DNA from: a virus
Taxonomy: Duplodnaviria; Caudoviricetes
DNA length: 54,708 nucleotides
Strand: one strand, 5' to 3'
IMG/VR virus record: IMGVR_UViG_3300033415_000003
Location: 1-54,708 of that record
Positions 289 through 44,970 of this stretch are shown piece after piece. A program made the position numbers and the translations under genes. How positions within the stretch are numbered: position 1 is the stretch's first letter; each line of letters opens with the position of its first letter. The notes beneath the pieces are model-generated. The model did no database searches and was not told where the DNA came from. It worked only from the letters and a program-made list of their open reading frames with translations.

Positions 289-360
289 TTAATTTCATTT
301 TTCTTCTTAATTTCCATCCGTCTGGAATTAAATCTACAACGATAAATTTTCTTACCACAG

Positions 361-436
361 TCTAGCTGGTGAGATTCGAACTCACAATAACCTGCAGTCC
401 AAGTGCAGTAACTACGCCTAATTAGATCGCAACTAG
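361..436 (-). tRNA. tRNA-Pro(TGG)
   Basis: Cloverleaf: CTAGTTG/CAGCTAG, CTGCA-CTTGGAC-TGCAG, GTGAG-TTCGAAT-CTCAC. Confidence 0.9.
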
Positions 437-447
437 TTATTAATCTA

Positions 448-725
448 TAATTTTTGGTGTGTTACTACACCAAATGCTCTGACGACTAAGTTTAACTGTT
501 TGGCCAAACTATGTATCAATCCAACATTATTTCAAAGATGATTGCAACTATCTTTAATTTTCAAAGACCATATTACCACGTAACTTACCCATATCGGATC
601 TTCTGTTTCCAGCCTGTTAATTCAGGGGCCGTATTTCTGTACCAATCGGTGTTGCAAACCATTGGCCTATCGAACTCGCAACTCTTTAAATGATGGCTAC
701 CCCCAAGCCCACATTCCAAAAATTA
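448..725 (-). ncRNA. structured ncRNA mimicking the 23S rRNA uL11-binding domain (H43-H44), with a ~210-nt insertion
   Basis: 5' part GGAATGTGGGCTTGGGGGTAGCCATCATTTAAAGAGT and 3' part GTGTAGTAACACACCA align with E. coli 23S 1054-1090 and 1091-1106 with compensatory changes; closed by a 10-bp terminal stem TAATTTTTGG/CCAAAAATTA. Confidence 0.85.
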
Positions 726-732
726 ATGATTG

Positions 733-808
733 TCCACGTAGCCGAATTCGAATCGACGTGCTCCATATCCCAAATATGGCGAGATAGACCTGACTCCTCT
801 ATACGTGG
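733..808 (-). tRNA. tRNA-Pro(TGG)
   Basis: CCACGTA/TACGTGG, CCATA-TTTGGGA-TATGG, GTCGA-TTCGAAT-TCGGC. Confidence 0.9.
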
Positions 809-874
809 TTAAATAAATTAAATTTCTACGCTTCTTTACTAACAGTATTTTGAAATACTAACAATCTCACATCT

Positions 875-1450
875 TTAATTAGACGGATGATAATATTGAA
901 TCCAATCTGAAAATGTATTATCCATGCTTAATTGATATAATTCTTCTTTTTTAATTTTATGTGTGTGCACTAATCTATGACAATTAGGGCATAATATAAC
1001 TAAATTAGACAAATTATTGCAATTTTCAATTTTCTTACCATTAATATGATGTATGTCAAGAGTTGATTCGTTCCAACCACATCTTTCACATTTTCTTTTA
1101 GCTCTGTACAAAATTTTAACTACAGTTGTTTTTGCAAGATCTAAAATTGTGTTAATCTCTTCTTTTGATTTTGCATGAACTACAATCCTTTTGCAATTAT
1201 TACAGTGTATTTTTTTACCACTTCTAATTTTTATACTTTCAAATTCACATTCACATTTTTCACAAACATAATTATATTTAATTATAATTCGGTCTACTTT
1301 AGTTTTTCTTTTTAATGTTTCACTTACTAATGAATTTATTAAAGAACGTTTTCCCTTTGTGCTAAACCCTCTAGAACATTTTGTTGAACAAAATCTACCA
1401 CTTCCATAAGAACCATTATGTTCTTTTCCACAATTTTCACAAATATACAT
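875..1450 (-). CDS. HNH homing endonuclease with N-terminal zinc-ribbon motifs
   Basis: CERCG...LDIHHINGK...NNLSNLVILCPNCHRLVH; N-terminal CENC...FCSTKC; free-standing within the tRNA cluster. Confidence 0.88.
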   Translation of the reverse strand: MYICENCGKEHNGSYGSGRFCSTKCSRGFSTKGKRSLINSLVSETLKRKTKVDRIIIKYNYVCEKCECEFESIKIRSGKKIHCNNCKRIVVHAKSKEEINTILDLAKTTVVKILYRAKRKCERCGWNESTLDIHHINGKKIENCNNLSNLVILCPNCHRLVHTHKIKKEELYQLSMDNTFSDWIQYYHPSN

Positions 1451-1452
1451 GG

Positions 1453-1466
1453 TTTATTTTATATAT
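1453..1466 (-). promoter_or_regulatory. putative phage late-promoter motif ATATATAAAATAAA (copy 1)
   Basis: Identical 14-mer also at 2913-2926 and 45613-45626, each just 5' of a start codon. Confidence 0.5.
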
Positions 1467-1510
1467 TTATGCTAACTATGAAAATATTTACAGTTATCGT
1501 AGTTCAAATG

Positions 1511-44879: not shown

Positions 44880-44896
44880 AACTTAATTTTTTATAG

Positions 44897-44970
44897 TGGG
44901 CCCGGAGGGATTTGAACCCCCGACCGTCTGGTTATGAGCCAGCTGCTACTTACCCCTGAGCTACGGGCCC
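44897..44970 (-). tRNA. tRNA with CAT anticodon, probably tRNA-Ile2 (lysidine)
   Basis: GGGCCCG/CGGGCCC-A, loop CT-CAT-AA, GGGGG-TTCAAAT-CCCTC; no initiator features. Confidence 0.88.

Follow-up and report, generated by a model that had tools for sequence, protein, structure and literature searches.

A family of phage non-coding RNAs resembling the GTPase-associated centre of 23S rRNA

Ribosomal-protein mRNA leaders, for example the L10 leader, mimic rRNA protein-binding sites and are cis-regulatory, lying upstream of the cognate gene, and to our knowledge the rRNA mimicry known so far consists of such short cis-acting leaders of ribosomal-protein operons. A second precedent is provided by synthetic 'ribosome-in-pieces' RNAs, i.e., isolated copies of the GTPase-associated centre (GAC) and of the sarcin-ricin loop (SRL), which are recognisable off the ribosome and were made in the laboratory as separate molecules; a 1997 PNAS paper reportedly found that oligonucleotides of the thiostrepton and sarcin-ricin domains bind EF-G. 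Phage tRNA regions hold RNAs of their own, among them the species 1 and species 2 RNAs of T4 (rnaC and rnaD), annotated right beside tRNA-Arg, and the tRNA-associated GOLLD and ROOL RNAs. The RNA described here is encoded on the minus strand of a viral record of 54,708 nucleotides (nt; IMGVR_UViG_3300033415_000003; Duplodnaviria, Caudoviricetes), which was analysed over its whole length and is referred to as the window, and it can be compared with each of these systems.

The closest counterpart of the phage element is the GAC as it stands in 23S rRNA. The likeness comprises the same helices, the same tertiary pairs and a 1072.(1092-1099) base triple with the same kind of covariation (E. coli numbering is used throughout), and in some phage members up to 37 consecutive bases are identical. 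The phage element differs, however, in being a stand-alone gene in tRNA arrays and not part of an rRNA, and in having a plain stem in place of helix 42 (H42), an insert of 23–365 nt, a UUU+R linker, A1101, and relaxed positions 1067, 1068, 1096 and 1097. With the ribosomal-protein leaders it has in common the principle of an extra-ribosomal RNA that imitates an rRNA protein site, but it is flanked by tRNAs, five of five carrier phages examined have no uL11 gene, its likeness to rRNA is far closer, and no leader in Rfam matches it. A ribosomal-protein leader was rejected as an identity on two of these grounds, namely that the downstream neighbour is a tRNA and that the uL11 domain PF00298 occurs in none of the five carrier genomes. 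The T4 RNAs occupy the same niche, being co-oriented with phage tRNA genes and presumably maturing through the same enzymes, but display no similarity in sequence or to the family model; they were rejected as relatives because the covariance model R1, described below, has no match over the whole T4 record, and rnaC and rnaD are unlike the element by eye. GOLLD and ROOL also share the tRNA-gene niche, and neither gave a cmscan match in the window or in 14 family loci. Compared with the laboratory-made RNA pieces, some of the phage RNAs join GAC and SRL in one molecule and add a variable domain.

A preliminary description of the window, made from the sequence, considered that the RNA might be undescribed in Rfam, and no family of Rfam 15 was found to match the element (window at E ≤ 10, 14 family loci at gathering score). 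For that case the description expected cmscan to return two split large-subunit (LSU) rRNA fragments; instead, there was no match at all. A 23S rRNA gene or fragment was rejected as an identity, given the lack of an LSU match (window at E ≤ 10; gathering score), the tRNA flanks and the absence of any other 23S segment. Full-text searches of the literature found no description of such an RNA. PMC10690425 presents 10,006 candidate viral structured RNAs, of which none in the available portion of the main text is rRNA-like, and PMC13157829 is, in its available portion, unrelated to a phage GAC-mimic RNA. Stand-alone copies of a ribosomal functional centre that are encoded by viruses are apparently a kind of RNA not described before, with the reservation that the supplementary tables of PMC10690425 may list the family.

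The element of the window and its family

Read along the minus strand from 724 to 449, the window contains a 276-nt element whose ends can be aligned to 1047–1090 and 1091–1112 of E. coli 23S rRNA, with a core match to 1051–1108, i.e., to helices 43 and 44 (H43/H44) of the uL11-binding GAC (reference, the rrlH sequence of E. coli K-12). The preliminary description had reported a minus-strand RNA composed of two GAC halves around an interior of ~210 nt, together with a set of base differences from E. coli, and all of these statements were confirmed by the comparison with rrlH. In the 5' half are found the H43 hairpin, the U1082-A1086 turn and G1087, A1088, G1089 and U1090, and in the 3' half the H44 hairpin with its loop G1093–A1098, in which A1095 is kept, followed by A1101, C1102, A1103 and C1104. 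The closing stem consists of eight base pairs (bp) between 724–717 and 456–449, extended by G1055 (716) paired with C1104 (457). Relative to E. coli, the pair 1054:1105 has become G-C, the pairs of 1052 and 1053 U-A, and 1090:1101 U-A, whereas 1072/1092/1099 are U/U/A and 1067 is G. The tertiary set of the window thus comprises U/U-A at 1072/1092-1099, U-A at 1082:1086 and U-A at 1060:1088, and its H43 loop has G at each of 1067–1070 and U at 1072. The notion of a GAC rebuilt around an insert stands as far as the GAC halves do flank the insert, but has to be amended as to its position: the insert lies in the 5' strand of H44, between 1090 and 1091, and the H44 hairpin 1091–1100 is kept.

The minimum-free-energy fold of the window element taken by itself has an uninformative z value of −1.41, and there is no second copy of the element within the window. 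The completeness of the record is estimated at 14%, which suggests that it is a piece of a very large phage.

The window element, 449–724(−), belongs to a large family of non-coding RNAs in phages. When viral contigs were scanned with 16 bases of the 5' half, at least 116 loci were obtained. Among the matches listed, the entire 5' half was present at 74 places, and a single match (L102) continued as genuine 23S rRNA; the others run into unrelated sequence and, 84 to ~450 nt further on, into the 3' half and the complement of the 5' flank. A second scan of viral contigs, anchored on the 3' half and the linker, gave at least 120 loci and 101 unique elements with a 5' half that the search had not forced, and in genome contigs the full element was present in 33 of 120 loci, mostly on contigs of metagenome-assembled genomes from many phyla. 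Pooled, these amount to at least 171 loci and at least 149 unique elements, a lower bound on family size from a sample shaped by the search anchors. Under the search pattern, 8/73 loci of the 5'-anchored set have a 5' half but no 3' half, four of them being cut by the locus end, and 30/144 matches of the 3'-anchored set lack a 5' half up to 900 nt away, of which nine lie at a locus end and many are expected chance matches. The true 23S gene in L102 and the loci from annotated records were left out of counts and alignments, and the conservation of the 5' half was read from the 3'-anchored set alone and that of the 3' half from the 5'-anchored set alone, the 3'-half search pattern having itself fixed several 3'-half positions.

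A covariance model, as suggested in the preliminary description, was built with the window left out, and it recovered the window. This model, R1 (149 positions, built from 37 short members), matches window 449–724(−) over positions 1–149 of 149 with 75.3 bits (E 1.2e-18), far beyond chance. For comparison, the elements of Pseudomonas phage pf16 and Serratia phage BF score 92.9 and 76.2 bits, respectively, and the true E. coli GAC 56.3 bits. Applied to whole genomes, R1 finds one copy each in Cronobacter phage GAP32, Serratia phage BF and pf16, and two matches in a 409-kb phage.

The named carriers are GAP32, Serratia phage BF, Pectobacterium phage CBB, the Erwinia phages Kaldavass and the pEa_SNUABM series, the Yersinia phages fHe-Yen9-03 and fHe-Yen9-04, the Xanthomonas phages XbC2, XaC1 and XacN1, Acinetobacter phage ME3, Aeromonas phage 4_4572, and the Pseudomonas phages pf16, Astolliot and UNO-G1W1. 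Cultured jumbo phages are among them (GAP32, Serratia phage BF, CBB and pf16). In the GenBank records of carriers the site of the element is unannotated or lies under a 'hypothetical protein'. These phages surfaced only when the elements of two other family loci (L012 and L180) were used as queries, and a distant blast search with the window element gave no match to named phages at E 1e-5. Two elements or model matches lie close together in one phage in L259 (3995-4345, and ~1.2 kb downstream) and in G002 (contig 156611-157565), which suggests occasional duplication.

As to occurrence in public sequencing runs, 95–96% of the sampled words of window 300–1500 were found in two runs labelled microbial mat metagenomes, and close relatives of the window element (~98% identity over 477–714) were found in wastewater runs. 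Three wastewater runs of one study are labelled RNA-Seq, all guessed to be RNA yet two of them flagged 'probably DNA', and yield short contigs over window 477–714, 430–579 and 577–711; they are counted neither way. No RNA dataset is among the public runs listed as containing window 300–1500.

The structural constraint on the family was assessed by imposing the rRNA secondary structure on an alignment of 147 members, with 500 shuffles as control. Canonical pairing was observed in 95.0% of cells, compared with 75.4% in the shuffles and 34–56% when the partners were slid, and the covariation score was 0.500, compared with 0.132 after shuffling; the observed values were reached by 0/500 shuffles. 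Changes on both sides were present in 15 of 21 pairs, and in the closing stem in all eight. Hence H43, H44 and the closing helix of the rRNA GAC are present in the family. For the tertiary structure, 117 unique cores were compared. The triple partners 1072/1092 are C/C in 80 cores, U/U in 36 and C/U in one; 1082:1086 is UA in 84, CG in 19 and AU in 12; and 1058:1080 is UA in 75, GC in 23, AU in 11, CG in three and a wobble pair in five. The pair 1060:1088 is UA in 115/117, and G1093.A1098 is found in 117/117. Such covariation of the triple and the pairs is as expected if the GAC tertiary fold is selected, and it is in agreement with the preliminary description, which attributed the compensatory changes in the window to selection on the tertiary fold. 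So far as covariation shows, the tertiary contacts 1060:1088, 1082:1086 and 1072.(1092-1099) are kept, the secondary and tertiary structure and the part played by each base being taken from the solved rRNA domain. Two members (L189:4107-4394 and L220:489-775) have, besides the usual insert, an extra insertion of ~29 nt in the 3' strand of H43 after the equivalent of U1078, and this site is a second tolerated insertion point.

The loop bases follow a different pattern. Of 101 members, 72 have A at position 1067, 26 have G, two U and one C, and 1068 is divided between G (72) and A (29); among 49 members, 1096 is A in 40, G in eight and U in one, and at 1097 there are 31 members with C, 13 with U and five with A. 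These four positions, loop bases that in the ribosome contact factors and thiostrepton and are near-invariant in rRNA, are less constrained in the family than the fold, and the window with G at 1067–1070 is an extreme case. A further departure concerns H42, whose continuation is absent and replaced by a plain covarying closing stem that abuts tRNAs. The missing internal part of H42 is presumably the site of uL10(-bL12), and its absence makes a titration of uL10-bL12, as envisaged in the preliminary description, unlikely.

Insert, junction and sarcin-ricin-loop module

In every one of the 149 members the insert is located between 1090 and 1091, with a length of 23–365 nt (median 158), and a pattern search of viral contigs for a form without insert gave 0 matches. 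The insert is closed by a helix, P-ins, formed in the window by U680-A475, G679-C476 and C678-G477; of the 149 members, 148, 146 and 140 have a canonical first, second and third P-ins pair, respectively, whereas shuffles give 74, 86 and 65. About a quarter of the family, the window included, has G.A, A.G and G.A oppositions next to these pairs (677/478, 676/479 and 675/480 in the window). The base before the insert is U in 101/101 members. The linker that follows the insert starts with UUU in 49/49 members of the 5'-anchored set, where these positions were unforced, and in fourth place 41 of them have G and eight have A. The partner of U1090, A1101, is found in 116 of 117 cores. The window has all of these features, with UGC/GCA closing pairs, the linker UUUG and A1101. 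Insertion through a helix and a UUU+R linker is thus an obligatory, designed-looking junction.

Some features of this junction are also those of a splice site, which raises the question of whether the locus is a functional RNA gene at all or a self-splicing intron with rRNA exon flanks, or else a captured, decaying rRNA fragment. The U before the insert (101/101) and the G as last linker base (41/49) are as at group I splice sites, and in the window a gene for an HNH endonuclease lies inside the tRNA array, 150 nt upstream on the far side of the element's neighbouring tRNA-Pro. This explanation is already contradicted, however, and we assign it a negligible probability. Rfam scans of the window and 14 family loci gave neither a group I intron (RF00028) nor an LSU match, the last linker base is A in 8/49 members, and inserts go down to 23 nt, far under the size of any group I intron; a group I intron was rejected on these three points. 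Furthermore, the flanks are under strong structural selection over at least 149 divergent copies, A1101 and UUU+R are specific to the family and not features of rRNA, and the element was never found inside an rRNA gene.

Several hairpins are present within the insert of the window, which belongs to a class with the ends UGCGAG...AGAGCA (23 unique members, some of them SRL-bearing and some shorter). The relatives nearest to it are L047, the only one from the pattern scan among the matches listed, and L272, from the genome loci, and several internal helices show compensatory changes among the three. A second class is marked by a CACCCCG-TAACTG-GTAAGG stretch and includes many short members, e.g., L213:238-368, L089:4452-4609 and L132:5768-5974; CACCCCG occurs in 17/149 inserts and GGTAAGG in 25/149. 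Distinct conserved insert classes, covarying internal helices in the window, L047 and L272, and an insertion point and linker that are invariant, as for a designed junction, would be in line with an RNA in which the GAC, as a compact handle protected by protein, does no more than stabilise or localise the molecule, the work being done by the variable insert, which differs from one phage lineage to another. We judge such a division of labour to be distinctly improbable, since some inserts are as short as 23–36 nt and form a single irregular hairpin, the GAC being the constant part, and since the sole recognisable payload, the SRL, functionally belongs with the GAC.

The SRL (H95, E. coli 2653–2667) is represented by its exact loop 11-mer (2655–2665) in 13 of 149 inserts, all of them long, where ~0.006 would be expected by chance (149 inserts of ~165 nt). 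The stems of these SRL hairpins differ between lineages yet stay paired, i.e., they covary. In another three copies the 2660 position is G, and a further two have diverged more. Other rRNA pieces were found neither by nhmmer (16/149 inserts) nor by k-mer count (all 149 inserts), and blastn-short of E. coli 23S, 16S and 5S rRNA with the window and the viral loci gave only AT-rich or lineage-specific chance 13–15-mers. Only GAC and SRL recur, so that the copied rRNA pieces are exactly the two that compose the factor-binding site.

GAC and SRL are at the same time the two rRNA elements that contact translational GTPases. According to PMC5829649, tRNA in the A/R state has A1067 stacked against its elbow and is touched by the SRL at its acceptor stem. 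The RNA might in this case be an off-ribosome docking platform, whose GAC, together with the SRL where there is one, would bind translational GTPases such as EF-G or the elbow and acceptor stem of tRNA and would sequester, deliver or sense them. The purine at 1067 in 98/101 members and the location of the element among tRNA genes fit a platform of this kind, but 1067 is G in 26/101 members and in most SRL-bearing lineages, three SRL copies have G at the A2660 position, and the SRL is present in only about a tenth of members; we regard the platform as highly doubtful. The relaxation of 1067 and the other loop bases also weakens the recruitment of translational GTPases put forward in the preliminary description.

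The tRNA-array setting

The element of the window is part of an array on the minus strand (361–2655) with co-oriented tRNAs Pro, Pro, Tyr, Phe, one at 2047–2116, Gln and Cys. The two tRNA-Pro genes that had been said to flank the element are real (Table 1), and they are not close duplicates of each other. The tRNA at 2047–2116 is called by Rfam only, and ARAGORN and Rfam each miss one or two tRNAs called by the other. The 3' end of the upstream tRNA-Pro is 7 nt ahead of the closing stem, and this tRNA is a likely processing signal; the downstream tRNA, 12 nt past the closing stem, is likely to provide the RNase P site that sets the 3' end of the element. In the family as a whole, 847 tRNAs share the strand of the element and two lie on the opposite strand (105/149 loci have tRNAs), and a tRNA lies within 15 nt of the closing stem in 49/149 loci. 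The identity of the flanking tRNAs shows no clear preference in the family loci. This embedding in co-oriented tRNA arrays makes the release of the RNA by tRNA processing, as first proposed for the window, plausible.

Table 1 Coordinates of the element and of other features in the window
Feature	Position	Strand	Remarks
Closing stem, 5' strand	717–724	(-)	23S 1047–1054; pairs with 449–456
GAC 5' half	681–716	(-)	23S 1055–1090; from comparison with E. coli rrlH, covariation and model match
Variable inserted domain, 206 nt	475–680	(-)	Between U1090 (681) and linker
Linker UUUG	471–474	(-)	Joins insert to G1091; family consensus UUU+R
GAC 3' half	457–470	(-)	23S 1091–1104
Closing stem, 3' strand	449–456	(-)	23S 1105–1112
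tRNA-Pro (anticodon UGG), upstream	732–808	(-)	ARAGORN; not in Rfam at gathering score
tRNA, anticodon loop UGG (Pro), downstream	361–436	(-)	Rfam tRNA, 36.1 bits, E 6.1e-6; not in ARAGORN
HNH endonuclease open reading frame, 191 amino acids	875–1450	(-)	PF01844, 28.6 bits; zinc-ribbon-like cysteines
tRNA-Met, distant	44896–44970	(-)	Same window

No neighbour protein is conserved in the family loci, the commonest cluster being present in 15/149. The proteins of this cluster have ~200 amino acids (e.g., in L135, ~1.5 kb upstream of the element) and, to judge by their sequence, may be TerD-like. The arrays of carriers include other RNA genes. CUA-anticodon tRNAs, called tRNA-Pyl by ARAGORN, are present in three carrier loci (L013:3087-3162, L016:332-407 and L108:10123-10198) and may be amber suppressors, hinting at TAG recoding. 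Phage tmRNA genes share arrays with the element in L016:2083-2433, L028:4045-4349, L061:9767-10142 and L108:209-583, and a match to the abiF RNA motif (RF03085; 41.6 bits, gathering score 37) is located in a carrier tRNA array at L108:6062-6099 (-).

A possible competitor at the ribosomal factor-binding site

An RNA of this kind would be able to act only by being recognised in place of the ribosome, which leads to the reading that it acts in trans and mimics, or competes with, the factor-binding site of the ribosome; to this reading, which is drawn from sequence comparison, we give an even chance. The RNA would be transcribed together with the phage tRNA array and excised by tRNA-processing enzymes (RNase P and 3' enzymes), as the co-orientation and the spacings of a few nucleotides suggest. 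It folds, as far as covariation shows, into the GAC tertiary structure, would probably be bound by host uL11, and would then compete in trans for whatever molecules recognise the ribosomal factor-binding site. Binding of host uL11 is suggested by the fact that the isolated rRNA domain is the known minimal uL11 site, together with the absence of uL11 from the phages: PF00298 was found in 0/5 carrier genomes, and in 14/14 genomes of the control. The five comprise three genomes that are at least 99% complete by CheckV estimate and two GenBank records titled complete genomes.

As to the ligand, our leading guess is a decoy that would soak up toxins or other enzymes whose target is H44 or the SRL of host ribosomes, and would so protect translation in infection, which we put forward tentatively and with less than even confidence. 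According to the available portion of PMC8661411, Tre23 ADP-ribosylates the H44 bases 1095–1098, and VapC-type toxins cleave 23S rRNA, at the SRL; PMC13096335, in the portion available, links phage tRNA regions to escape from RNA-targeting immunity. An optional SRL fits a modular decoy.

Several points weigh against a competitor and against a decoy. We know of no anti-phage defence system aimed at the GAC, and a stoichiometric decoy is weak against a catalytic enzyme unless binding is very tight. Since the loop bases are relaxed, a ligand that reads them would not be served in all lineages. The SRL is confined to about a tenth of members, the loop 11-mer being absent from ~90% of them, and the insert of the window is without the motif. 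The decoy leaves the obligatory insert and the UUU+R linker unexplained, and this junction, which none of the functional readings ranked here accounts for, is the main unexplained feature of the family. The absence of a conserved neighbour protein (best cluster, 15/149 loci) means that the gene context offers no functional hint.

The ligand could instead be uL11 itself, the first idea put forward in the preliminary description. By titrating free or exchangeable host uL11, the RNA would give rise to ribosomes without uL11, and because uL11 is required for RelA activation, RelA-dependent (p)ppGpp synthesis would be blunted. What all members share is exactly the minimal uL11-binding domain, its tertiary determinants all retained, uL11 is absent from 5/5 carrier phage genomes, and relaxed positions 1067 and 1096 suit a role that needs the fold and not the factor contacts. 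A uL11 sponge of this type would, however, leave both the SRL module (13–16 of 149 members) and the obligatory insert unexplained, it would require RNA amounts on the scale of ribosomes, and mature ribosomes already carry uL11; we consider it unlikely. Taken as a whole, the interpretation given in the preliminary description is partly supported: its observation is confirmed and is larger than first reported, whereas uL11 binding, the decoy function and any effect on RelA are what we infer from the sequence.

The competitor reading can be extended to a miniature, free-standing factor-binding site in many large phages, i.e., a ribonucleoprotein of host uL11 and a GAC-fold RNA, in some cases with an SRL, that would engage translational GTPases, RelA-tRNA complexes or rRNA-directed toxins off the ribosome. 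We regard this picture as somewhat unlikely; if true, it would give phages direct control over translation-factor traffic or ribosome-targeted immunity.

A viral RNA that copies a functional centre of the ribosome almost exactly and acts in trans would belong to a new class, and selection maintains the copy in at least 149 distinct phage lineages, with hosts of many phyla. The family accounts for gaps that annotation has left in the tRNA arrays of jumbo phages in culture, and it offers a natural compact GAC RNA, in some members with an SRL, for structural work. Because carrier phages are in culture, the proposals made here are directly testable. The finding points to an unrecognised phage-host conflict at the GAC, which may consist in the decoying of toxins or in the control of uL11, the stringent response or translation factors.

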